Positions 5,704 through 50,629 of a stretch of 64,000 nucleotides of DNA are shown here, in pieces. The stretch spans positions 14,142 through 78,141 of the forward strand of contig JADGPZ010000002.1 of assembly GCA_017882165.1 (NCBI GenBank), given 5' to 3'. Source of the DNA: Candidatus Kapaibacterium sp. GTDB taxonomy: Bacteria > Bacteroidota > Ignavibacteria > Palsa-1295. Position 1 is the stretch's first letter. Every line of letters starts with the position of its first letter. A program made the translations under genes and the position numbers. Under the pieces are notes generated by a model that was given only the letters and a program-made list of their open reading frames with translations, did no database searches and had not been told where the DNA came from.

Positions 5704-5707
5704 TTTG

Positions 5708-6228
5708 TGGAGATGAGGGGAGTCGAACCCCTGTCCGAAGAATTCAACCGAAGGGTACTACGCACATAGTCTCCTGATAAGTTAGATGACGCGCGATCAT
5801 AGCAGGAAACGACCGATCGCATGTCATCGCCCCTCCTTGTTACTTCAGCGCAAGCGAAGAGCACTCATGCGCCAAGAGATACGGCAAGATGATACCCGCT
5901 TTCGCGAGAACCACCCGTTACACCGCAGCCAGATCCGCCATATCCAAAGACCTGGTACGATGGGCACCCTCCCACCTATCGGCGAGATAGCAGCATCAAC
6001 TTTAAGTTACCTTAAAGGAGCTTAGGCAGCCATTGCGTAGCTATAAGTGTTCGCAATTGTTTGTTGCCGCGAGTTTGAGTCAGAACGTTCTTTGGATGAT
6101 CGCTCATCCACCGAACGTTCACGAGCGTTCCCGGCGCCACTCGGTGCGCACCTGTACGTGATTCCCGCTTTCGCGAGCCTCACGCACTACTTCAGCGGAT
6201 TATCCCCCGTCGAAGCCAATGCATCCCC
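5708..6228 (-). ncRNA. ssrA: tmRNA (SsrA), ~520 nt, predicted tag peptide ANTYSYAMAA
   Basis: Minus-strand 5' end GGGGATGCATTGGCTTCGACGGGGGATAATCC is the canonical tmRNA 5' motif. The 3' end is GGACAGGGGTTCGACTCCCC-TCATCTCC-A (T-arm plus acceptor). Acceptor pairing GGGGATG/CATCTCC includes the G3-U wobble. An internal reading frame gcg aac act tat agc tac gca atg gct gcc taa gives A-N-T-Y-S-Y-A-M-A-A-stop. Confidence 0.8.
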
Positions 6229-35483: not shown

Positions 35484-35557
35484 GGGTGTAGGGTATAGGG
35501 TGTAGGGTATGAATACCCTGCATCCTCTACCCTATACCCTAAACGCTATACCCTATG
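35484..35557. repeat. Nested palindrome built from TAGGGTAT / ATACCCT units spanning the mraY-murD junction and the murD start codon
   Basis: gggtgTAGGGTATAGGGTGTAGGGTATgaATACCCTgcatcctctACCCTATACCCTaaacgctATACCCTATG. The murD ATG (35555) lies inside the 3' arm. Confidence 0.55.
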
Positions 35558-36907
35558 TTAGTCCGTGGCAAACGTTTTTCGATCTTAGGTGCCGGCAGGT
35601 CCGGCCTCGCGGTCGCGCGCTTGCTCAAGACGCGACGGGCCAAAGTATTTCTTTCCGAGAGCGGCAAAAAGTCGAAGTTCGAGGATGCCGCGCGCGAGTT
35701 GGACGAGATTGGAGTCGAGTACGAGTTTGGGAACAACACGCACCGCGTGCTCGATGCCGATTATGTCATACTTAGCCCCGGCGTTCCAATGGAAGCGCCG
35801 ATCGTAAAGCTCGCGCGAGAGAAGGGTATCAAGATCTTGGCAGAGATCGAGATCGCGTTCGATCAATGCGAAGTGCCGGTCATTGCAATCACAGGCACGA
35901 ACGGAAAGACGACGACGACAACGCTCGTCGGGGAGATATTCAAGCGCGCCGAGTGGAACACGCTGGTTGCCGGCAACATCGGAATTGCGTTCTCGGAAAT
36001 TGTCGATCAGGCGAAAGGCGAAAAGGCGGTGGTCGTGCTCGAAGTATCGAGCTTCCAGCTCGATGCGATCGATACGTTCCGACCAAAGGTCTCCGCCATC
36101 TTGAATATCACGCCGGACCACTTAGACCGATACAAGAATTACGAAGCCTATATCCAGTCGAAGTTTCGGATTGTCGAGAACCAGAAGGGACACGATGTCT
36201 TCGTCTATAATCACGATGACGAGACCGTCCGCAATGTTGCGGAAACTGTCAGTGTCCGAACACTCGGATTTTCGCTAAAAGAAGAACTGAAGCAAGGCGC
36301 CTATCTGCAAGGCGACGACATCGTCCTTCGCATTGGCCGCGAAAAGGAAGTGCTGATGAACCGCGCGGAGATCGGCATTCCGGGGCCGCACAATCTGATG
36401 AACGCCATGGCGGCGGCGCTCATGACTCGGACGATGGGTGTCGAGTTCGACGTGATTCGCGAGACGATGCGTGAATTCAAGGGCGTCGAGCATCGCATCG
36501 AATTCGTCCGCGAGTTGAACGGCGTGAAGTATTACAACGACTCCAAAGCGACGAACGTCGATTCGGTTTTTTACGCACTCGGTAGCTTTGCAGAGCCGAT
36601 CATCCTTATCGCCGGTGGCAAGGACAAAGGCAACGATTACTCGAAGATCAAAGATTTAGTCGAGGAGCATGTGAAGGCAATTGTCACCGTCGGCAAAGGT
36701 GCCGAGAAGATCGAGAAATTCTTCAAAGGGATGAAGCCGATTCACTCTGCCGGGATGTCGATGGAGGAAGCCGTGCGATTAGCGAAGGACGCTGCCGCAC
36801 CTGGCGACATTGTGCTCCTCTCACCCGCCTGCGCGAGCTTCGACATGTTCGATAATTACGAACACCGGGGGAGAGTGTTTAAGAAATTAGTGAATCAATT
36901 GAAATGA
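35555..36907 (+). CDS. murD: UDP-N-acetylmuramoylalanine--D-glutamate ligase
   Basis: N-terminal Rossmann GxGxxG (ILGAGRSGLAVARLL), P-loop IAITGTNGKTTTT, and Mur ligase C-terminal domain. Confidence 0.9.
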   Translation: MLVRGKRFSILGAGRSGLAVARLLKTRRAKVFLSESGKKSKFEDAARELDEIGVEYEFGNNTHRVLDADYVILSPGVPMEAPIVKLAREKGIKILAEIEIAFDQCEVPVIAITGTNGKTTTTTLVGEIFKRAEWNTLVAGNIGIAFSEIVDQAKGEKAVVVLEVSSFQLDAIDTFRPKVSAILNITPDHLDRYKNYEAYIQSKFRIVENQKGHDVFVYNHDDETVRNVAETVSVRTLGFSLKEELKQGAYLQGDDIVLRIGREKEVLMNRAEIGIPGPHNLMNAMAAALMTRTMGVEFDVIRETMREFKGVEHRIEFVRELNGVKYYNDSKATNVDSVFYALGSFAEPIILIAGGKDKGNDYSKIKDLVEEHVKAIVTVGKGAEKIEKFFKGMKPIHSAGMSMEEAVRLAKDAAAPGDIVLLSPACASFDMFDNYEHRGRVFKKLVNQLK

Positions 36908-36917
36908 AATTTCCAAT

Positions 36918-37325
36918 ATGGATCCCGTTATCGGCATTCTAACATCGATTGTTATCCTCGCGATTATTTACCTCTGCGTATGGCTAATTCTGAGAATGCT
37001 CATTCGAAGAAGAATCATCAGCGTGCTAATTTCTTCCCTCATTGCACTAATCGTATTTGCAGTGCTCATTACATGGTCCTATTCAAAATGGTATGAACAC
37101 CATATTAAGAGCCTCTCATACGTTGATCCTATCGCTGCGAAGTTCTTTCATGAGCATCCGCTTCGAAGGGATAGCCTGCTCGGAATGACGAAACCGCAAG
37201 TGTTTACCACACTGGGCCTGCCGGAAGATACTGCCGGAGATCGAATCGTTTACACAATCGAACCATACTACCGGACGATTGTCCTATTTTTTAAGAATGG
37301 AACGGTAATCGAAGTTGAGAAATGA
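36918..37325 (+). CDS. Small membrane-anchored protein with BamE/SmpA-OmlA-like C-terminal domain, inserted between murD and ftsW
   Basis: Two N-terminal TM helices. C-terminal GMTKPQVFTTLGLPEDT...RIVYTIEP...VLFFKNGTVIEVEK resembles the BamE fold pattern. GC content is visibly lower than the flanks. Its stop overlaps the ftsW start. Confidence 0.45.
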   Translation: MDPVIGILTSIVILAIIYLCVWLILRMLIRRRIISVLISSLIALIVFAVLITWSYSKWYEHHIKSLSYVDPIAAKFFHEHPLRRDSLLGMTKPQVFTTLGLPEDTAGDRIVYTIEPYYRTIVLFFKNGTVIEVEK

Positions 37326-38497: not shown

Positions 38498-39606
38498 TGA
38501 AGAGCGCAAAGAAGACAATCCTCATCGCTGCAGGTGGCACGGGCGGCCATTTGTATCCGGCATTGGCAGTCGCGGAAGAGATTCGCCGCATGCGGCGGGA
38601 TGTCCGTGTCATCTTCGTCGGCACCCGCAAGCGGATCGAGTCGCGCGAGGTGCCGAGAGCCGGGTTTCCGTTTCATCCGATCAAAATCGAAGCACCGCGC
38701 AAGTCTGCGGCAGGAATGCTGCGATTTCCATTCCAATTCGCCGCTGCCACGGTTGATTGTATGCGACTGATGTCCGGCGAGCGGCCTGCAGCGATGCTGG
38801 GCGGTGGCGCGTATCTCAGCGTGCCAGTAGGCATTGCGGCCTGGATCATGCGAATGCCGATAGCGCTACTCGAAATTAACTCGATCGCCGGTTCAGCGAA
38901 TAAACTCCTCGCGCCATTTGCGGATAAGCTGTTCGCGGCCTATCAGGAATCGCTCGATCAATTCACAAAACCTCTTGCACAATCGGCGATTGTCTGCGGA
39001 ACGCCCGTGCGGCCCGAGCTCGGCGCGCTCCAGCTTTCGCAAGCGGAGGCAAGATCGAGTTTCGGCCTCGACGCCGCACGCCGGACGATCTTCATATTCG
39101 GCGGTTCGCTCGGTGCGCGACCGATTAACGAAGCGGTCGAGAGTGCGGCCCCGGGGCTTACCCAGCAGGGGTACAACATCCTGTGGCAGACCGGAAAGAG
39201 CGCTGACGCCGAGCGTCTACGCGAGAAGTTTAGGAATCAGCCGAACGTTCGTGCGATGGAGTACATTTACGAGATGGAGCGGGCCTTCCGCGCTGCGGAC
39301 TTAGTCGTGTGTCGCGCGGGAGCATCGTCGCTGGCCGAGCTTGCACGGCTTGGGAAGCCAACGGTGCTGGTTCCGTGGTCGGGCGCGATGGCGAACCATC
39401 AGGAGATGAACGCACTTGCATTCGAGAAGGATGGAGCGGCCGTAGTGCTTCAAGACGGCGAAGTCAGAGACCGATTGTTAGAGACGGTCCTGTTGTTGCT
39501 TCACGATCCAGAACGATTACGCACGATGTCAGAGGCAATGGCCCGCAGAGACAAACCGGATGCTGCAAAGATTGTGGCCGAATGGTTGTTAGAGAGAGTC
39601 ACATGA
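38497..39606 (+). CDS. murG: UDP-GlcNAc:undecaprenyl-PP-MurNAc-pentapeptide GlcNAc transferase
   Basis: N-terminal GGTGGH(L/V)xPAxAV motif (AAGGTGGHLYPALAVAEE) and GT28 C-terminal domain. The ATG at 38497 overlaps the ftsW stop. Confidence 0.9.
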   Translation: MKSAKKTILIAAGGTGGHLYPALAVAEEIRRMRRDVRVIFVGTRKRIESREVPRAGFPFHPIKIEAPRKSAAGMLRFPFQFAAATVDCMRLMSGERPAAMLGGGAYLSVPVGIAAWIMRMPIALLEINSIAGSANKLLAPFADKLFAAYQESLDQFTKPLAQSAIVCGTPVRPELGALQLSQAEARSSFGLDAARRTIFIFGGSLGARPINEAVESAAPGLTQQGYNILWQTGKSADAERLREKFRNQPNVRAMEYIYEMERAFRAADLVVCRAGASSLAELARLGKPTVLVPWSGAMANHQEMNALAFEKDGAAVVLQDGEVRDRLLETVLLLLHDPERLRTMSEAMARRDKPDAAKIVAEWLLERVT

Positions 39607-40124
39607 CCGAGGAATCAACACACGTCTATCGAGCACGCCTCGATTTCCTGTATCAGTCTATCGCGATGTACGCGGTGGCGCTGGTGCTATATCTCATTGT
39701 TCGGTCGTCCGTTGCATCCGAGGCGTTTCCTTCGCTATGGCAGGACCCACTGTTGTTCCTGCTCTCCGCAATCACGTTGATTTCCGTTTGTGCCTTGGCT
39801 TATAATCTATTTATGGGCCGCCAAATTGAGATCGCACGGGATGCAATCCGGTTTAAGAGCCGCGCGCGCCAGCGCTCTGTGGCGCGATCTGAGGTAGCCT
39901 TTCTGCAATTCGGACCGCGGTTTCGCCAGCCTCGCGGACGTATCCGTGTCGTACGCATTCGGTTGAAAGGCGAGCGGCGCCCAATCCGAATTCGTCTGGC
40001 GAACTTCGATCGCCGCAGACAGTTGCTTGCCGACTTGCGCCAGTGGGCGGGACCGCTGGGCAGAGAAGCGCGTCCGGCGTCAGGCGCGCCACGTAAGATA
40101 GCGCTCGGGAAGGAGTCTGGCTGA
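39603..40124 (+). CDS. Small 2-TM membrane protein with basic, possibly bacterial-PH-like, C-terminal domain, between murG and murC
   Basis: The ATG overlaps the murG stop (ATGA). Two TM helices (IAMYAVALVLYLIV, LLFLLSAITLISVCALAY) and an Arg-rich C-terminal ~90 aa. Part of the frame overlaps the murG 3' end, so the call is tentative. Confidence 0.35.
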   Translation: MTEESTHVYRARLDFLYQSIAMYAVALVLYLIVRSSVASEAFPSLWQDPLLFLLSAITLISVCALAYNLFMGRQIEIARDAIRFKSRARQRSVARSEVAFLQFGPRFRQPRGRIRVVRIRLKGERRPIRIRLANFDRRRQLLADLRQWAGPLGREARPASGAPRKIALGKESG

Positions 40125-40135
40125 GGCCAGCGACT

Positions 40136-41560
40136 ATGCGTCACGTTCATTTTATTGGCATCGGCGGAGCCGGTACGAGCGGGCTTGCGGAGATATTGCT
40201 GCTCCGGGGCATCGAAGTCTCCGGAAGCGATCTGGTTGCGAATGCAAAGACGGACGAACTCGCATTGCTTGGCGCGACCATCCATGAAGGACATGCCGGG
40301 CAGAATGTGAACGGGGCGGATATCGTCGTTTATTCTTCCGCCGTGCATCGCGACAATCCTGAATACGCGGAAGCCGTGCAGCGCGGTGTTCGAATCCTTC
40401 GCCGTGCGGACTTCATGGCCGAGCTACTGGCCGATCACAGTGTCATTGCCGTTGCTGGCACGCACGGAAAGACCACGGTGACCAGTATGATCGCCTCGAT
40501 CCTCATCGAGGCAAAGCTCGATCCGCTCGTGCTTGTTGGCGCCAGCGTTGCGGAACTGGATGGGAAGAATTCGCGCGCCGGGACCGGACGCATTGCCGTT
40601 GTTGAAGCGGACGAGTACGATCGCAGCTTCCTCGCGCTCCGGCCATTCATCGCCGTCATGACCTCTCTTGAAGAAGAGCACCTCGATATATACAAAGACT
40701 TGGACGATCTGAAAGACGCGTTCGTCGAGTTCGCGAACCAGGGTCCATCATCGCCGCAAACCGGATACGCGGTTGTTTGCATCGATGAGCCAGCCTTGCG
40801 CGCCATCACACCACGGCTTCAGAAGCGGATCGTGAGTTATGGCCTTCGGTCGATGGAAGCAAAGTATCGTGCGACGAACGTTTTGCTGAGTGCCCAACGG
40901 ATGCGTGCAACGATCATGCGAGGCAGCGATGCAGTTGGAGAGTTGGAATTACGCGTACCCGGGGAGCACAATATCTACAATGCGCTTGCCGCGCTGACCG
41001 TCGGAGAGATCTTATCGATTCCTTTCGAGACCTCGGTGCGGGCGCTGAAACGCTTTACGGGTGCCGAGCGGCGGTTTGAACGTATCGGCGAGGCTGCCGG
41101 TGTGGTTGTGATCGATGATTACGCGCATCATCCCACCGAAGTCCGAGAGACGCTCCTGACAGCCCGAAAATGCTATCCGGGCCGGCGCATCGTCGCGTGT
41201 TTCCAGCCGCACACATTTACGCGGACACGTGATTTTGCAACTGGTTTCGGCCAGGTATTTGCGGAACTTGCCGATGTGCTCGTGCTGCTGGACATATATC
41301 CGGCGCGCGAACAGCCGATTGAAGGTGTCACCAGTAAGCTGATCGCCGAGGCGGTGCTGGAGCTGAAGGAAATCCATGAGGTTGCAACCGTCGAAGAGTT
41401 GCCGGATCGGGTCGTCGCGATCGCGCAGGCCGGCGATGTCATCCTGACCATCGGCGCCGGGACGATTACGAACGCAGCCCGACCGATATTCGAACTCATG
41501 AAGGATAGGGAGCAAACTGGTGTTACCGTGCCGGCCTCAGAATTTGCCATCGCACAATGA
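40136..41560 (+). CDS. murC: UDP-N-acetylmuramate--L-alanine ligase
   Basis: N-terminal HFIGIGGAGTSGLAEIL, P-loop AVAGTHGKTTVTSM, and Mur ligase domains. Confidence 0.9.
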   Translation: MRHVHFIGIGGAGTSGLAEILLLRGIEVSGSDLVANAKTDELALLGATIHEGHAGQNVNGADIVVYSSAVHRDNPEYAEAVQRGVRILRRADFMAELLADHSVIAVAGTHGKTTVTSMIASILIEAKLDPLVLVGASVAELDGKNSRAGTGRIAVVEADEYDRSFLALRPFIAVMTSLEEEHLDIYKDLDDLKDAFVEFANQGPSSPQTGYAVVCIDEPALRAITPRLQKRIVSYGLRSMEAKYRATNVLLSAQRMRATIMRGSDAVGELELRVPGEHNIYNALAALTVGEILSIPFETSVRALKRFTGAERRFERIGEAAGVVVIDDYAHHPTEVRETLLTARKCYPGRRIVACFQPHTFTRTRDFATGFGQVFAELADVLVLLDIYPAREQPIEGVTSKLIAEAVLELKEIHEVATVEELPDRVVAIAQAGDVILTIGAGTITNAARPIFELMKDREQTGVTVPASEFAIAQ

Positions 41561-43026
41561 CCCAAGAAACTCCCATACACGAGATAGAAGAAACGCCATC
41601 CCCCTTGGAGATGGTGACCGATGAGAGTACCATCCCTTCGGATGGCGCTGCTTCGGATGTCGCTTCAGAAGAAACGGAAGCTCCACCCACCGATGGTGCG
41701 GTCGCTGCCAATGGCACGGCCCGCCGCGAATACCGCCCGCAAAGGGAGCGTGAGCCACGGGAGCGTGAGCCGCGCGCGCGAAAGGCACGCAAACCAGCCC
41801 CAGCAATCTTCGAGCGCTTTGTCGTCATCCGCTGGTCCGGACGCCGCGAGCCGGTCGATGATATGTTCTGGGCCGAGGCGACCAAGGAAGGCGAGTGGAT
41901 GGTCCTGACGGAGTTCGAGCAGATCCGTTCTCGCAAGGATATTTTGGCACGGCTACTGGAATTGCCGCCTGCGTTGGTCGCGCTTGATTTCCCGCTCAGC
42001 TATCCCGCTGACTTTTTCGAATTTTTGAAGGGCGAAGGGATCACCGACTGGAGATCGCTCGCAAAGCGAGTGCGGGAGGATCTCAAAAAGAACGTTGATG
42101 ACGGCGTGCGGCTTTGGATCGAACGGATGGGCGCCTATCGTGAGTCGCGGTTGGAAGACGAAGCACTCTGGCCCGATCGCCGGGACGACCGCTACAACGA
42201 CCGCCGAGGCGACCGGTATAACGATCGAGGGAATGACCGGTACAACGATCGCCGCTCGCCACTACCTCGTGAGCCTTTAGCACCCTACGAGCGCGGATCG
42301 CTCGCCGAGCGCTTTCGCCGCACGGACCATGCCCTGCGCCGCGTGGCCGACCGGCATCTTGTCAGTCCGGTTCAGATTGGTTACAACCGTCTGACCAATC
42401 GTTATGAGTTTACCGATGCGAACTCGCAGGGCCGCGCGGCGCTGCTTGGCATGTCGATGCTCGATCAAGTGCTCGATGTTCGTCAAGATGCGGCAGTCTG
42501 GCCGATGATGGCGCCGAAGCCGCTGACAATCGTTGAGGTGTTGCCATGGGTCTTCACCGCTGGTGACCGGTTGCAACCCGATGTGCTTCGGAAGCAAATG
42601 GCCACACTGGAAGATCGCGGCTGGGATATCCCGAGTCATGCGATCGACCAGGCCGCTCGAAATCCCGAGGCGCAAAGTGCCCTCCGGTGTTTGCTCGGCA
42701 TGATTAAGACCGAGAGCCGAGAGGATCGGCAACGGCGCCCGATCCGCGATTACTTGCCTGCATTCTATGATGATCCGCAGGTCAAACTCGAAGGGTGGTT
42801 CTATAGCGTTGGCTATCGGTCGATGACTGAAGAATCCAAATCGGAGCACCCACATAAGGAGGAAGCGAAAGACTCGCATCCGAAAGAGAAGCAAGAGACC
42901 AAGAAGAATATAGCGCTGCCAACGCCTCTGGAGAGTGTCCAGACCGAAAGTCCGGAAGCAGCAGTCCTTGCCGAAGTGACCGAACCCGCTGTTTCTGCGG
43001 AAGCCGAGCAAGAGCCAAGCCTTTAG
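41557..43026 (+). CDS. Hypothetical 489-aa protein inserted between murC and ftsQ: acidic/RE-rich termini, three DRYND repeats, possible RNase-H-like (DUF429-like) core
   Basis: The ATG overlaps the murC stop (ATGA). It contains a 21-nt tandem DNA repeat x3 (GACCGCTACAACGACCGCCGA...) encoding DRYNDRRGDRYNDRGNDRYNDRR. Core motifs VVIRWSGRRE, LVALDFPLSYP, RTDHALRRV...SPV and TIVEVLPWVF loosely resemble DUF429-type proteins. The fold assignment is speculative. Confidence 0.5.
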   Translation: MTQETPIHEIEETPSPLEMVTDESTIPSDGAASDVASEETEAPPTDGAVAANGTARREYRPQREREPREREPRARKARKPAPAIFERFVVIRWSGRREPVDDMFWAEATKEGEWMVLTEFEQIRSRKDILARLLELPPALVALDFPLSYPADFFEFLKGEGITDWRSLAKRVREDLKKNVDDGVRLWIERMGAYRESRLEDEALWPDRRDDRYNDRRGDRYNDRGNDRYNDRRSPLPREPLAPYERGSLAERFRRTDHALRRVADRHLVSPVQIGYNRLTNRYEFTDANSQGRAALLGMSMLDQVLDVRQDAAVWPMMAPKPLTIVEVLPWVFTAGDRLQPDVLRKQMATLEDRGWDIPSHAIDQAARNPEAQSALRCLLGMIKTESREDRQRRPIRDYLPAFYDDPQVKLEGWFYSVGYRSMTEESKSEHPHKEEAKDSHPKEKQETKKNIALPTPLESVQTESPEAAVLAEVTEPAVSAEAEQEPSL

Positions 43027-43175
43027 ACGAGAGCAGTGGAGCTTCCGCTGCCCGCAAGCCCTATTTGCATTGCCTCTCAACGAGGCAAGCCTTTAACTCA
43101 CGTATTTCATTTTTCAGCGAACGCTGTTTTCGTGCTGCGCGCAGGCAACTGTGCGTGTTTGCGAAAGTTTTTGCT

Positions 43176-44399
43176 ATGCGATTTACGATCAATCCGCCGA
43201 ATGGCGGCCGCAAAGAACTGACGAATCTTCGGGCGCGGGAGCCGGACGATCTCGTCCGGCAGCGACTGGGCGAGCGACAGAGCGAGCACCTTGGCGCGTC
43301 CGCACTGCGGACGGATGTAGAGGCATATCTCGATCGGGCGGCCGCGAGCGACGCTCCCGAAAGCGAGAGCATGCCGAGCGATACGTTCGAACAGTTCCTT
43401 GCGGAGGATACTCATGATTTATCTGGAACGAACGGTGACGAAGGGACTTCCTGGAGGCATTCTCGCTGGGCACCGGCGCTATTTCTTCTGGCAGTTGGTG
43501 CGCTAGCTTCACTGTGGTACTTCGCGGCGCATTTCGATCGCTCGCTCGCGCTTGAGAGCGTAAAAGTGGAAGGTGCCGATCTTGTGGCCGAGCGGGAGAT
43601 CGTCCGGCTTGCCGCAATCGACATGAAGCAAGCATTCTACTCGATCGACCTCCGGCGCATTGAGTCGAGGGTCGCGCAGCACTCTTTAGTCAAACATGTG
43701 CATGTTCGCCGAGAACTGAGTCCGGCAAGCATCGTCATCTCCATCGAAGAACGGCGGCCAGTGGCGATGCTAAAGTCAGATTCGTCGGGTGAGACTTATC
43801 TTATCGATCGGGATGGACACCTGCTTCGACCCAAGCTGCTTGCGGGTCTCAGCGATCCCGCGCGTTTGCTCGCGGTGCCACTCCTGAGCGGTGTGAGCGA
43901 GCGGGACACGGTCGGCTTCCAGGCGATGGCGCGACTCGTCGCGACGATCGGCGCGATTGACTCCGGGGCGTTGGGCAAAGCGATCGGCGAATTGCGCCGG
44001 ACGCCCAACGGATCATACGTCATCTATACTGCCGAGACACAGACGCCGATCTTCATCGGATCGCCGTTCGACGCACCATTTCAGACCGCGCTTGAAGAAG
44101 AGCGTGGCACAACCACGCGCGTGACAAACGATCACTTCTTCATGACACAGATCGCGCTGCTTGCCAAAGTCTGGAGATCCAAGCTTGAGAAGTCGCTCCG
44201 GGCCGGCGATGCGCTCTATGTCGATGCGCGGTTTCGAGGGCAGATCATCCTGAAGCGCCGCAACCAAGCCATGCTGCATGGTGCGCCGCCAGCATCTCAG
44301 AAATTTTCTGGACTCAATGGACTTGATGGACGATGTGGACCGTCCACCGCGTCCATGGTGTCCGTTCCGTCCATCGAGTCCATTCAGTCCACATCATAA
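43176..44399 (+). CDS. ftsQ: Cell division protein FtsQ/DivIB-like (POTRA domain)
   Basis: Position before ftsA. Single TM (WAPALFLLAVGALASLWYF) followed by a POTRA-like LESVKVEGADLVAEREIVRLAAID...IESRVAQHSLVKHVHVRRELSPASIVISIEERRP. Start chosen at ATG 43176. The cytoplasmic tail is unusually long. Confidence 0.6.
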   Translation: MRFTINPPNGGRKELTNLRAREPDDLVRQRLGERQSEHLGASALRTDVEAYLDRAAASDAPESESMPSDTFEQFLAEDTHDLSGTNGDEGTSWRHSRWAPALFLLAVGALASLWYFAAHFDRSLALESVKVEGADLVAEREIVRLAAIDMKQAFYSIDLRRIESRVAQHSLVKHVHVRRELSPASIVISIEERRPVAMLKSDSSGETYLIDRDGHLLRPKLLAGLSDPARLLAVPLLSGVSERDTVGFQAMARLVATIGAIDSGALGKAIGELRRTPNGSYVIYTAETQTPIFIGSPFDAPFQTALEEERGTTTRVTNDHFFMTQIALLAKVWRSKLEKSLRAGDALYVDARFRGQIILKRRNQAMLHGAPPASQKFSGLNGLDGRCGPSTASMVSVPSIESIQSTS

Positions 44400-47431: not shown

Positions 47432-48991
47432 GTGTCACGGTTGGATCCGAGACGCGAGAGCAGTCTCTCACCCTTGAAGAGTAGTCTACTTCCAATCGGC
47501 GTTGCCATTGGGAGTAGTCTGCTCACGCTCATCCCGCCCTCGATCATCGGGACCGATTCGAGCGCGCTCACCCTGCAAAGCCTCGAGCATTGGATGCACG
47601 GGACACCAGACCGCTTCGAGGCGCTGCGCATTCACTGGCTGTGGATACCTCGCGTGATCGCATATCTGACGGGCGATGCGTTTGCCGCGCTCGTGATCTT
47701 CCGAGCGATCATATTCGGCCTCACGATCTATCTCTTCGCGAAAGTTGGCGAGCGGTTCGGGCGTGGAGACCGCGCCACAACAATCCTTGCGGCTGCGATG
47801 CTCGCGCTGAACGTGGTCGTTCTCTACTTCTCGCACACATTCGCCTCGCAATTGCTGACGTTGTTCGTTGCGGTCTGGATGCTCTATCTTTTGACGAGTG
47901 ACAAGACGCAGAATCATCGGCTCGCCGCGCTGATTTTCGGACTGAGTCTGTCGATTGGTTTTTGGCCGTTTGTGCTTCTGCTTGCTGTCGTGACGGTAGG
48001 ACTGAATTTTCATCACGCGACGTATACTCCTCGCTTGCGACAAACCTATCAGCTATTTGGTCTCGTGCTGCTCGGAGCCGCCTCCTATATTTTGTTGGAA
48101 ATATTCCTCTTCGGCACAGCGCATGTTTGGGAAATGATGATGCCAAAAGTCTACCAGCCACGCGAGATCAGCCTCATCGCACAGGGGCTCATCATTGGGC
48201 TCTTCTCGGTCAACATGCTGGTCATAGCTGTATTCGTTCGCAGGCAAGACAGCATCGCTCGCGATTTCCAATCGGCATTTGTTATTCTCGTCGCATTTCT
48301 TTTGCTGAATACCTTTTCGCGCGAGGATATGCTGCACGATGTGATGGTACTGATCCCTTGTGTGATCCTCGTTGGAGTGGACAAATGTGGACTTAGTAGA
48401 CGGCGTGGACTTATCGGAGCAGCATATTTGGGGGTGAACCTCGGACTGTTCTTCTTGCTTCCGACTTTTTTGCCGGACCCGCAAATCGCCATGCCGAGTG
48501 CGAAGCGCACGGTAAGCTCAAGCGATGTCTCGCTGCACCACTATGCCAGCGCAGATTTCTTTAGCTATGCGAAGCTGCGAGAGCAGGCGGCAGGAGAGGA
48601 AGAAGTCAGAGCCGTTCTTGAAACAGCTCGACTGGATTCGACGCTTGTGTTAATTACTCCTGGCACCGATTATTGGTTCGATGCCGCAACGCTCGGCGCA
48701 ATGTATCCGAGTGCGAAGTTCGGCTGGTTCTATGGTAATCCGATTAATATGGTTCGGATCAATGGGCTGCTCGATACGGCGTTTATTCGCCCTCCATCCG
48801 GTACGCCATATCTCGCCGGGTTGTTTGAGAAGTCGTATGCGATGCGATTCATCGATAGCTCACTTCCATCAGGTGTGCCCATACGGGAATCTGCGCGATT
48901 TCAATACATCGACACACGAGGCAACACGGATGCGCGAAAGGCGCTGATCGATCGGCTGATCTTCTTACAATATCAGGGCTTTCGACATTGA
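47432..48991 (+). CDS. Polytopic integral membrane protein (GT-C-like / unknown) directly abutting ftsZ; GTG start
   Basis: The GTG is 1 nt after the ftsZ stop. Roughly 11 predicted TM helices with a C-terminal soluble ~180-aa domain. No catalytic motif is recognised. Confidence 0.4.
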   Translation: MSRLDPRRESSLSPLKSSLLPIGVAIGSSLLTLIPPSIIGTDSSALTLQSLEHWMHGTPDRFEALRIHWLWIPRVIAYLTGDAFAALVIFRAIIFGLTIYLFAKVGERFGRGDRATTILAAAMLALNVVVLYFSHTFASQLLTLFVAVWMLYLLTSDKTQNHRLAALIFGLSLSIGFWPFVLLLAVVTVGLNFHHATYTPRLRQTYQLFGLVLLGAASYILLEIFLFGTAHVWEMMMPKVYQPREISLIAQGLIIGLFSVNMLVIAVFVRRQDSIARDFQSAFVILVAFLLLNTFSREDMLHDVMVLIPCVILVGVDKCGLSRRRGLIGAAYLGVNLGLFFLLPTFLPDPQIAMPSAKRTVSSSDVSLHHYASADFFSYAKLREQAAGEEEVRAVLETARLDSTLVLITPGTDYWFDAATLGAMYPSAKFGWFYGNPINMVRINGLLDTAFIRPPSGTPYLAGLFEKSYAMRFIDSSLPSGVPIRESARFQYIDTRGNTDARKALIDRLIFLQYQGFRH

Positions 48992-50555: not shown

Positions 50556-50629
50556 TGGGCAATACGGGATTCGAACCTGTGACCTCTTCCATGTCAAGGA
50601 AGCGCGCTAACCAACTGCGCCAATTGCCC
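50556..50629 (-). tRNA. tRNA-Val (anticodon GAC)
   Basis: Cloverleaf folded by hand: acceptor GGGCAAT/ATTGCCC, D-arm GCGC-AGTTGGTTA-GCGC, anticodon arm CTTCC-TTGACAT-GGAAG, T-loop TTCGAAT. There is one A.C mismatch in the T-stem. CCA is not encoded. Confidence 0.8.

Follow-up and report, generated by a model that had tools for sequence, protein, structure and literature searches.

X489, a gene located between murC and ftsQ in the window (the whole 64-kb stretch of DNA analysed here), encodes a 489-aa protein that, judged from sequence and predicted structure, has about an even chance of being a non-catalytic pseudo-nuclease derived from a DUF429-like fold of the RuvC class, likely serving as an anionic-ligand-binding or scaffold protein coupled to murC. 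The gene is vertically inherited and has so far been found only in Kapaibacteria-type MAGs. The preliminary description of this DNA had placed a 489-aa ORF at 41557–43026 on the forward strand, between murC and ftsQ, with its start codon overlapping the murC stop codon; we recovered the same arrangement, the X489 ATG and the murC TGA together forming ATGA at 41557–41560. The features of this locus are as follows.

39603–40124, forward strand: orfS (173 aa), a second lineage-specific gene, which always co-occurs with X489
40136–41560, forward strand: murC, the invariant upstream neighbour in related loci
41557–43026, forward strand: X489, ORF of 489 aa, encoding a cytoplasmic protein that branches off the DUF429-like RNase H fold and is specific to Kapaibacteria
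41557–41560, forward strand: ATGA, X489 start overlapping the murC stop (predicted translational coupling)
43065–44399, forward strand: ftsQ, the downstream neighbour, given as its longest ORF (POTRA_1, E = 3.3e-11)

X489 directly follows murC in all 34 loci found via X489 and in all seven informative loci found independently via orfS; the murC–X489 junction is unbroken in these 41 loci, while the X489–ftsQ junction is broken by murB or other inserted genes. The gap between murC and X489 lies between −4 and +9 nt in most of 33 loci, and a 4-nt overlap of the ATGA type is also present in seven related loci. In the window, ftsQ likely begins with the ATG at 43176, so that X489 is followed by a 149-nt spacer; the matching spacer in one related locus (L001) is also 149 nt. 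X489 thus keeps its place and direction in the cluster from species to species, as well as a tight spacing to murC, as expected of a dcw (division and cell wall) gene. A position in the dcw cluster is no proof of a role in division; the dcw genes rsmH and ylmH, for example, have products acting on RNA or ribosomes. The orfS protein has two hydrophobic segments, likely transmembrane as read from its sequence, and a basic β-rich domain; no transmembrane segment was found in X489 (top Kyte-Doolittle average of 1.43 in a 19-residue window). No sigma-70-like promoter was identified near X489 in a promoter scan whose coverage does not extend to Bacteroidota promoters. An apparent MurC–X489 fusion in one locus (L020, 871-aa frame) was an artefact, as the tblastn segment crossed a stop codon at 6115–6117 into the murC frame.

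A total of 65 X489 homologues were identified, none of them annotated. The novelty claimed for this protein holds, as the family has neither a Pfam nor an NCBIfam model; direct searches of Pfam, NCBIfam, and PDB sequences with the window protein and the family profile returned nothing usable, and no publication was found that deals with the family or with division genes of Kapaibacteria. Matches to PIN_10 (E = 0.03), ZorC (E = 0.03), and DUF924, as well as other single-member matches, were below threshold and inconsistent among members. Absence of the ORF from related genomes had been named as grounds for abandoning it; the gene is instead kept in the dcw cluster of its relatives. Across homologues, X489 identity to the window protein tracks the identities of murG, murC, and ftsA (Spearman 0.81–0.86), which argues for vertical descent. 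The family alignment contains 22 invariant residues. Compared to the 92%-identical homologue (P0210), the window protein presented 42 differences in total, with 26 of these within residues 1–84 and 11 in the core of about 300 residues. The mean pI of the folded core (7.7, near neutral) does not discriminate the family from its parent family (7.4); the whole X489 protein is acidic. These values do not bear the hallmark of a general DNA binder.

A search of 1.84 billion representative proteins with the family profile yielded 18 matches at E < 1e-30, then about 240 distant proteins of 255–300 aa whose matches cover both halves of the X489 core and leave out a region between them. The parent family, here termed the DWSG family (A3; 255–300 aa, uncharacterised), was matched by the X489 family alignment (A2) in hhalign at 99.96% (E = 3.9e-39, 260 columns). 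The two families have in common both core halves and the motifs xWSG, LDFxFSxP, RxT(E/D), WP, VE(I/V)xP, and EGW; the DWSG family, unlike X489, keeps D12, D71, E190, D238, and D241 and has no helical insert, linker, or tails. Its match in NCBIfam is the unknown domain of the MobB fusion protein NF011066, and it overlaps in part with DUF429 (PF04250): 4 of 30 members match this Pfam model, and one exceeds the gathering score (best 27.3 bits). The DUF429-type RNase H likeness hinted at in the preliminary description is borne out by these comparisons, and the four core motifs listed there (VVIRWSGRRE; LVALDFPLSYP; RTDHALRRV...SPV; TIVEVLPWVF) are present and are those common to the DUF429-like parent family. 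PF04250 itself does not match the window protein at E ≤ 10 and matches 1 of 19 X489 family members (best E = 0.11), the gathering threshold of 23 bits not being reached. On sequence comparison, X489 is homologous at the superfamily level to DUF429-related sequences; by Pfam's definition, it is not a PF04250 member. Parent-family members include fusions to a RelA/SpoT-type HD_4 domain (four cases), a HEPN RNase, and MobB; both of the parent-family members whose loci were examined lie outside dcw clusters.

In the AlphaFold2 model, the X489 core opens with three antiparallel strands, followed by a helix, strand 4, another helix, and strand 5, and its closest structural neighbours are in RNase H-like clade D (RuvC/YqgF/terminase/DUF429), in keeping with membership of this superfamily. 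DUF429 belongs to the same clade (Majorek et al. 2014), its link to X489 running through the DWSG family. Foldseek searches against PDB and BFVD gave no match at E ≤ 0.001, the weak matches being to terminase and RuvC nuclease domains, and the Holliday-junction resolvases RuvC, Ydc2 (Cce1), MOC1, and those of poxviruses are 8–12% identical to X489 in sequence. TEFM, a mitochondrial transcription elongation factor, is a catalytically dead resolvase-like protein, but it is eukaryotic and has another domain context and other partners; no specific homology between X489 and TEFM was found. The parts of X489 are as follows.

41557–41721, forward strand: acidic N-terminal tail, predicted disordered, residues 1–55, net charge −13 (pLDDT about 45–50, composition)
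41722–41808, forward strand: basic Arg/Pro/Glu-rich segment, residues 56–84, net charge +7
41743–41775, forward strand: 15-nt repeat, two copies (REREP), inside the basic segment
41809–42006, forward strand: RNase H-like core, N-terminal half (AlphaFold2 model, hhalign)
41830–41832, forward strand: R92, at the strand-1 catalytic Asp site (Asp in 0 of 54 in this column)
41986–41988, forward strand: D144, strand-4 acidic residue (column D41/E10/N3)
42007–42168, forward strand: family-specific three-helix insert, residues 151–204 (pLDDT above 95)
42169–42285, forward strand: Arg/Asp-rich linker, predicted disordered, residues 205–243 (pLDDT 53–70)
42187–42258, forward strand: three imperfect 24-nt units, in frame, encoding DRYNDRRG, DRYNDRGN, and DRYNDRRS (TRF)
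42286–42816, forward strand: RNase H-like core, C-terminal half, residues 244–420 (AlphaFold2 model, hhalign)
42535–42537, forward strand: E327, retained acidic residue
42667–42669, forward strand: E371, at the D..D pair invariant in the parent family
42676–42678, forward strand: S374, at the same D..D pair
42817–43023, forward strand: C-terminal tail, Lys/Glu-rich then acidic, predicted disordered, residues 421–489, net charge −8 (composition, pLDDT)

The charges of residues 1–55 and 421–489 agree with the acidic termini noted previously; the N-terminal tail is missing in a short-form clade of the family alignment, and the C-terminal tail ranges from 20 to 101 aa across the family. No family-wide C-terminal docking motif was found, the motifs ENPIV(S/N)EP and DLDKAAxxPQP being subclade-specific. 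The N-terminal core half includes strands 1 (87–92), 2 (104–111), and 3 (114–122), a helix (126–134), and strand 4 (139–143); the C-terminal half includes the ERFRRTD helix, the YNRLTxRYEF hairpin, strands 312–315 and 323–327, and a C-terminal helical bundle. The three-helix insert, which is the region skipped by the distant relatives in both the profile search and hhalign, bears the most conserved motif of the family (VREDLKKNxDDGVRLWIERxGxYRES), with R173, K177, N179, D182, G183, R185, W187, G192, Y194, R195, and E196 invariant. Between family members, the linker (mean pI 11.2) differs in both its length and its sequence.

RNase H-like nucleases essentially all carry an Asp on strand 1. In the parent family, D12, D71, E190, and D241 are invariant and D238 is present in 28 of 30 members; in the X489 family, three of these five acidic residues are lost or unconstrained, so that a working nuclease is unlikely. 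The strand-1 site is occupied by S, T, L, R, G, A, V, M, or I, and never by Asp or Glu, in 54 members; this range of nine different non-acidic residues indicates that the site is unconstrained. At the C-terminal-helix sites, Asp is found in 14 of 54 members at the first and in 4 of 54 at the second, and the catalytic acidic tetrad of the RuvC/Ydc2 type (strand 1, strand 4, C-terminal helix) is not conserved. The strand-4 site is acidic in 51 of 54 members, and E327 is invariant in every member covering that column; E98 is invariant and family-specific, and position 257 is always acidic (D/E). The strand-1 Asp has been described as essentially universal among RNase H-like nucleases, and the putative active site of DUF429 as made up of conserved acidic residues, one set on strand 1 and another on strand 4 (Majorek 2014); X489 differs from DUF429 in having no such strand-1 residue, which was what suggested nuclease activity for DUF429. 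The earlier wording, a nuclease-fold or scaffold protein, is thus apt as to the RNase H-like fold, and the nuclease activity that it might imply is improbable. We infer that X489 is inactive as an enzyme; on sequence criteria, it resembles a pseudo-enzyme, which still has the fold of an enzyme family and is homologous to it, has lost residues that are invariant in the active relatives, and apparently remains under purifying selection.

X489 is probably transcribed together with murC, and in most genomes translation of the two genes is probably coupled. Its core derives from a DUF429-like nuclease of the RuvC-class RNase H fold through loss of the strand-1 Asp and of the C-terminal-helix D..D pair and through gain of the invariant charged three-helix insert and the Arg/Asp-rich disordered linker, as well as, in the long-form clade, of charged disordered tails. 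Such a protein may still bind an anionic ligand (i.e., nucleic acid or a nucleotide-containing molecule) through retained ancestral Arg residues (R126 and R254) and the new conserved surface, and its tails may engage other products of the operon (MurC, MurB, orfS, or FtsQ/A/Z) in a multivalent manner. Both the ligand binding and a role in peptidoglycan-precursor synthesis or division are presumptive. We propose tentatively, and regard as unlikely in its full form, that X489 acts in the Kapaibacterial cell-envelope and division machinery as a new component without enzymatic activity, a nuclease fossil turned adaptor, which together with orfS tethers MurC/MurB or FtsQAZ and might sense a nucleic-acid or nucleotide-sugar ligand, thereby linking septation to precursor supply or to the status of the chromosome.

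A possible, though rather unlikely, explanation is that X489 is a housekeeping pseudo-nuclease or a nucleic-acid or nucleotide binder (e.g., in RNA or nucleotide metabolism) with no relation to division, adjacent to murC as a frozen operon accident, as with rsmH and ylmH. The fusion partners of the parent family (HD_4, HEPN RNase, and MobB) point in this direction, as does the resemblance of the Arg-rich, aromatic-containing linker to an RNA-binding disordered region; RNase HII activity has also been reported for the N-terminal DUF429 domain of M. smegmatis MSMEG_5849 (PMC4429107). The selective preservation of the murC–X489 junction over the X489–ftsQ junction and the strict co-occurrence with the lineage-specific membrane gene orfS speak against a housekeeping role but are compatible with it all the same. 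A distinctly improbable alternative is an active nuclease, resolvase-like or RNase H-like, expressed with the septation genes and using a rebuilt centre of E98, D/E144, D/E257, and E327. The conservation of these four positions and a fold class that includes resolvases and YqgF would fit such an enzyme; on the other side are the unconstrained strand-1 site, the Asn found at the strand-4 site in three members, and the variability of both helix Asp sites. As a counterpoint to the pseudo-nuclease reading, the family-specific E98 could make up a reconstructed metal site with D144, D/E257, and E327.

The proposal in the preliminary description that X489 replaces murB/ddl drew on this locus, where neither gene lies between murC and ftsQ and where no murB homologue was found in the 64-kb window. 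However, among the first 34 related loci, 15 carry both X489 and murB, in the order murC–X489–murB–ftsQ, as do two more loci found via orfS, and the X489 fold is unrelated to the FAD-binding fold of MurB or the ATP-grasp fold of Ddl; a functional replacement of either enzyme is refuted by this co-occurrence and has very little probability. murB and ddl are commonly missing at this position in Bacteroidota clusters anyway. The probability that X489 is a mobile-element or defence gene inserted in the cluster, or a spurious ORF, is close to negligible; phages and transposons do encode many proteins with a RuvC-class RNase H fold, but the 65 homologues share a conserved core, synteny holds in every locus, and X489 diverges together with its neighbours, the last two points refuting this reading. 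In addition, no significant PADLOC match and no significant viral-structure match were found.

The dcw cluster is among the most conserved bacterial gene arrangements, and genes added to it in a particular lineage are therefore promising when looking for division or cell-wall factors not yet known. Here, an uncultured lineage of at least 29 species-level genomes has fixed two added genes, X489 and orfS, around murC. X489 provides a clear case of a nuclease fold giving rise to a protein that is likely non-catalytic, that displays a new invariant surface, and whose disordered regions are charged; the family, which is not in Pfam, is defined here, and DUF429-like proteins are tied to a concrete cellular context. 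The analysis also yields a compact set of residues and constructs for testing. If X489 were a housekeeping RNA or nucleotide binder, it would represent another case of a misleading dcw position.

The linker also contains the DRYND repeat, which had been described as a perfect 21-nt repeat in three copies. The protein does contain the hexapeptide DRYNDR, in exactly three copies, each inside an 8-aa unit; at the DNA level, the period is 24 nt and the repeat is imperfect (TRF at 42174–42254: 3.4 copies, 73% matches), and the X489 ORF has no perfect repeat at any of the periods scanned (8–39 nt). Repeat copy-number variation, suggested earlier as a check, was not seen, as the sole close homologue, P0210, has the same three units with identical sequence; the repeat region is absent from a 61%-identical homologue (P0002). 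Pairwise DNA identities among the three 24-nt units are 15/24, 18/24, and 17/24, and the copies differ mostly at synonymous sites.

The division and cell wall (dcw) cluster of the window is of a typical Bacteroidota style, with the order murD, a small membrane ORF, ftsW, murG, orfS, murC, X489, ftsQ, ftsA, and ftsZ, where X489 is the ORF between murC and ftsQ. The features concerned are as follows.

35555-36907, murD
36918-37325 (+), 135-aa membrane ORF between murD and ftsW
39603-40124 (+), orfS, 173 aa
40136-41560, murC
41557-43026 (+), X489, 489 aa
43140-43163 (+), terminator-like hairpin and T-run inside the 149-nt X489-ftsQ spacer
43176, ATG, likely start of ftsQ
47432-48991 (+), 519-aa polytopic membrane protein ORF, its first base directly following the ftsZ stop

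As the preliminary description had it, the ATG of X489 overlaps the murC TGA (as ATGA) and both protein tails are acidic, with net charges of -13 (residues 1-55) and -8 (residues 421-489); residues 56-84, just before the folded part, are basic (+7), and X489 has no transmembrane segment. The hairpin in the spacer could, on weak grounds, be a transcription boundary or attenuator (four terminator-like sites in the 2.1 kb scanned versus 1.7 expected).

X489 is a real gene, and its family is narrow. Among 5.8 billion protein clusters there were 65 homologues, all unannotated and none with a Pfam domain, whose source names, where given, were Candidatus Kapabacteria, Kapaibacterium, Ignavibacteriota, or Bacteroidota metagenome-assembled genomes (MAGs); with each GTDB species represented by a single genome, scanning gave 29 loci, in records titled Kapaibacterium, Ignavibacteriota/Ignavibacteriae, Bacteroidota/Bacteroidetes, or simply "bacterium", and one labelled Alphaproteobacteria. 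The family has no Pfam or NCBIfam model, no literature on it was found, and it is undescribed. The conserved core, which spans query residues of about 85-204 plus 244-420, includes 22 invariant positions, while the N- and C-terminal tails and an Arg/Asp-rich linker are highly variable.

Absence of the gene from related genomes had been named beforehand as part of the grounds for abandoning the proposal; X489 was instead present directly 3′ of murC in 34/34 loci, which were found through the X489 protein itself, and an independent search led by orfS gave 14 metagenome loci with X489 at the same place in all seven that extend past murC. Counted from the murC stop, the earliest start codon that X489 could use mostly falls at -4 to +9 nt, and several other loci share the ATGA overlap. 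The X489-ftsQ interval elsewhere holds unrelated inserted genes; the murC-X489 junction was never broken in the loci found. Sequence identity of X489 relative to the window copy correlates with the values for murG, murC, and ftsA (Spearman 0.81-0.86), with a mean (45%) similar to that of FtsQ (47%). X489 is a conserved, vertically inherited, operon-embedded gene. It had been proposed to replace murB; however, the order murC-X489-murB-ftsQ occurs in 15/34 loci and X489 therefore does not replace murB, of which no homologue was found anywhere in the 64-kb window.

These 15 loci represent one of two clades, a short-form clade in which X489 has about 350-390 aa and entirely lacks the N-terminal tail, murB lies between X489 and ftsQ, and FtsQ is short (321 aa in L002, the sole locus with a gene call). 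In the long-form clade, X489 has about 420-540 aa with a disordered N-terminal tail, the cluster lacks murB, and FtsQ is long (395-444 aa, judged by gene calls or ORF lengths where these exist); disordered extensions seem to have grown in X489 and FtsQ within the same clade. On one long-read metagenome contig (L003, 6001-8744), the X489 orthologue is interrupted and reads as two ORFs of 281 and 178 aa, owing to a frameshift or else to faulty assembly, and a gene for a 431-aa retropepsin-like aspartyl protease (Asp_protease_2 / gag-asp_proteas) lies between it and ftsQ.

Direct Pfam, NCBIfam, and PDB sequence searches with X489 gave no matches. When 1.84 billion representative proteins were scored with a profile of the family core, the 18 matches below E 1e-30 were the X489 family itself and its fragments, and about 240 further proteins, mostly of 255-300 aa, matched in two stretches (profile positions of about 2-90 and 190-325) corresponding to both core halves, not to the helical insert or linker. 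An alignment of 30 of these distant proteins (the "DWSG" family) matched the X489 core alignment in hhalign with 99.96% probability (E 3.9e-39, 260 columns); Pfam DUF429 is matched by four of the 30, with one exceeding the gathering score, and 19 match the "unknown domain" of NCBIfam NF011066 (MobB fusion protein). Because of this chain of homology, the DUF429-type RNase H fold suggested in the preliminary description is correct at the superfamily level, and the core motifs quoted there are exactly those common to both families.

An AlphaFold2 model built with a 54-sequence alignment had pLDDT > 90 for residues 85-205 and 241-420 and about 45-55 in the tails and linker; as modelled, the core begins with the strand/helix order of an RNase H-like fold. 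Its structural neighbours were the Holliday-junction resolvase Ydc2/Cce1 (9.9), TEFM (8.8), herpesvirus and phage terminase nuclease domains (about 8.4), poxvirus resolvase (8.4), RuvC (8.2), and MOC1 (8.2), with YqgF-like domains of Spt6 and Tex, Cas9/Cas12 RuvC domains, and YqgF lower; Foldseek against PDB and BFVD gave weak matches only, of the same kind. The structural neighbours of the model are members of clade D in the scheme that Majorek et al. 2014 (PMC3985635) drew up for RNase H-like proteins, a clade to which they also assign DUF429. X489 has an RNase H-like, DUF429-related fold, which has gained an invariant insert and disordered charged regions.

In the parent family (the "DWSG" proteins), D12 ("DWSG"), D71 ("LDF"), E190 ("EIYP"), and D241 never vary, and 28/30 members have Asp at position 238; D238 and D241 form "DAFDA" in the C-terminal helix.

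Parent catalytic positions, window residues, and counts in 54 X489 family members
D12 (strand 1): R92; S21 T10 L9 R4 G3 A3 V2 M1 I1, never acidic
D71 (strand 4): D144; D41 E10 N3
E190: E327; E in 53/53 present
D238 (helix): E371; K15 D14 L5 E4 Q4 and others
D241 (helix): S374; R16 Q11 E7 H6 N4 D4 and others

Three of the five ancestral catalytic carboxylates are lost, and because unconstrained residues have taken the place of the strand-1 Asp and the helix pair is gone as well, two-metal nuclease activity appears unlikely from the residues present. Retained ancestral features include the WSG motif, R126, R254, T256, D/E257, WP, P330, and EGW. The family has also gained invariant positions, namely R97-E98-P99 following strand 1, the motif VREDLKKNxDDGVRLWIERxGxYRES within a three-helix insert, ERFRR, and a YNRLTxRYEF hairpin. 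The X489 family, with its recognisable active parent family, is a catalytically degenerate, insert-bearing, dcw-fixed branch of a known superfamily.

We give an even chance to X489 being a pseudo-nuclease with a retained binding function, a non-catalytic adaptor that would be made together with MurC; its putative binding site would combine the ancestral R126 and R254 with the new conserved surface, and its partners may be the strictly co-occurring membrane protein orfS, MurB, or the FtsQAZ proteins. Lineage-specific additions to dcw clusters have precedents. The main rival, which we consider rather unlikely, is a housekeeping RNA or nucleotide function with a historical dcw position, as for rsmH and ylmH. 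In the parent family, fusions to HD_4 and a HEPN RNase and the NF011066 matches suggest an ancestral role of the "DWSG" domain in nucleotide or RNA metabolism. The two parent-family members with loci examined have contexts unrelated to dcw. RNase HII activity has been reported for the DUF429 domain of M. smegmatis MSMEG_5849 (PMC4429107). An active X489 nuclease, with a site rebuilt around the invariant E98, is improbable, given the carboxylates lost. Other readings are effectively refuted, namely MurB/Ddl replacement, origin from a mobile or defence element, and a spurious ORF. X489 is a solid lead to a lineage-specific cell-envelope or division factor of an uncultured group, with a function that we infer.

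Longer parent-type relatives carry HD_4 (RelA/SpoT-type) or HEPN_Swt1 domains, in agreement with published notes on DUF429 fusions (PMC3153485). Five such fusion proteins (P0088, P0102, P0153, P0185, and P0136) have a catalytically intact "DWSG"/DUF429-like domain, with HD_4 on either side and a Swt1-like HEPN RNase once.

The perfect 21-nt x3 repeat previously described in X489 does not exist; TRF reported a period of 24 with 3.4 copies and 73% matches, and an exhaustive scan of periods of 8 to 39 nt found no perfect repeat. Three in-frame units (42187-42258) have 15-18 of 24 bases in common and encode DRYNDRRG, DRYNDRGN, and DRYNDRRS; an exact hexapeptide with differing codons speaks for an ancient duplication maintained at the protein level and against recent slippage. 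Copy-number variation, suggested as a check, was not seen in a 92%-identical homologue, where the region is identical; a 61%-identical orthologue lacks the repeat. The basic segment before the core contains a second small repeat (41743-41775, +), in which two 15-nt units with 14 of 15 bases identical code for REREP-REREP.

Like X489, orfS is a lineage-specific dcw gene. Its protein has two hydrophobic segments that are likely transmembrane, as well as a C-terminal domain that is basic and beta-rich; weak, sub-threshold matches to bacterial PH domains (bPH_10, bPH_6) were obtained with the orthologues. All related loci with sequence reaching that far upstream have orfS between murG and murC, and wherever a locus is long enough to tell, orfS co-occurs with X489, of which it is a candidate partner.

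The murD-ftsW position is occupied in relatives by a 165-aa LprI-domain protein (L001), a 230-aa protein (L004), or no gene (L002). The 519-aa ORF after ftsZ has no significant Pfam match; L001 instead has a redoxin-family gene on the opposite strand. Two RNA genes were also identified in the window.

5705-6228 (-), tmRNA gene (Rfam RF00023, 90 bits)
50556-50629 (-), tRNA gene (Rfam RF00005, 68 bits)

The tmRNA gene spans 524 nt versus a 374-position model and therefore has sizeable insertions relative to the consensus.
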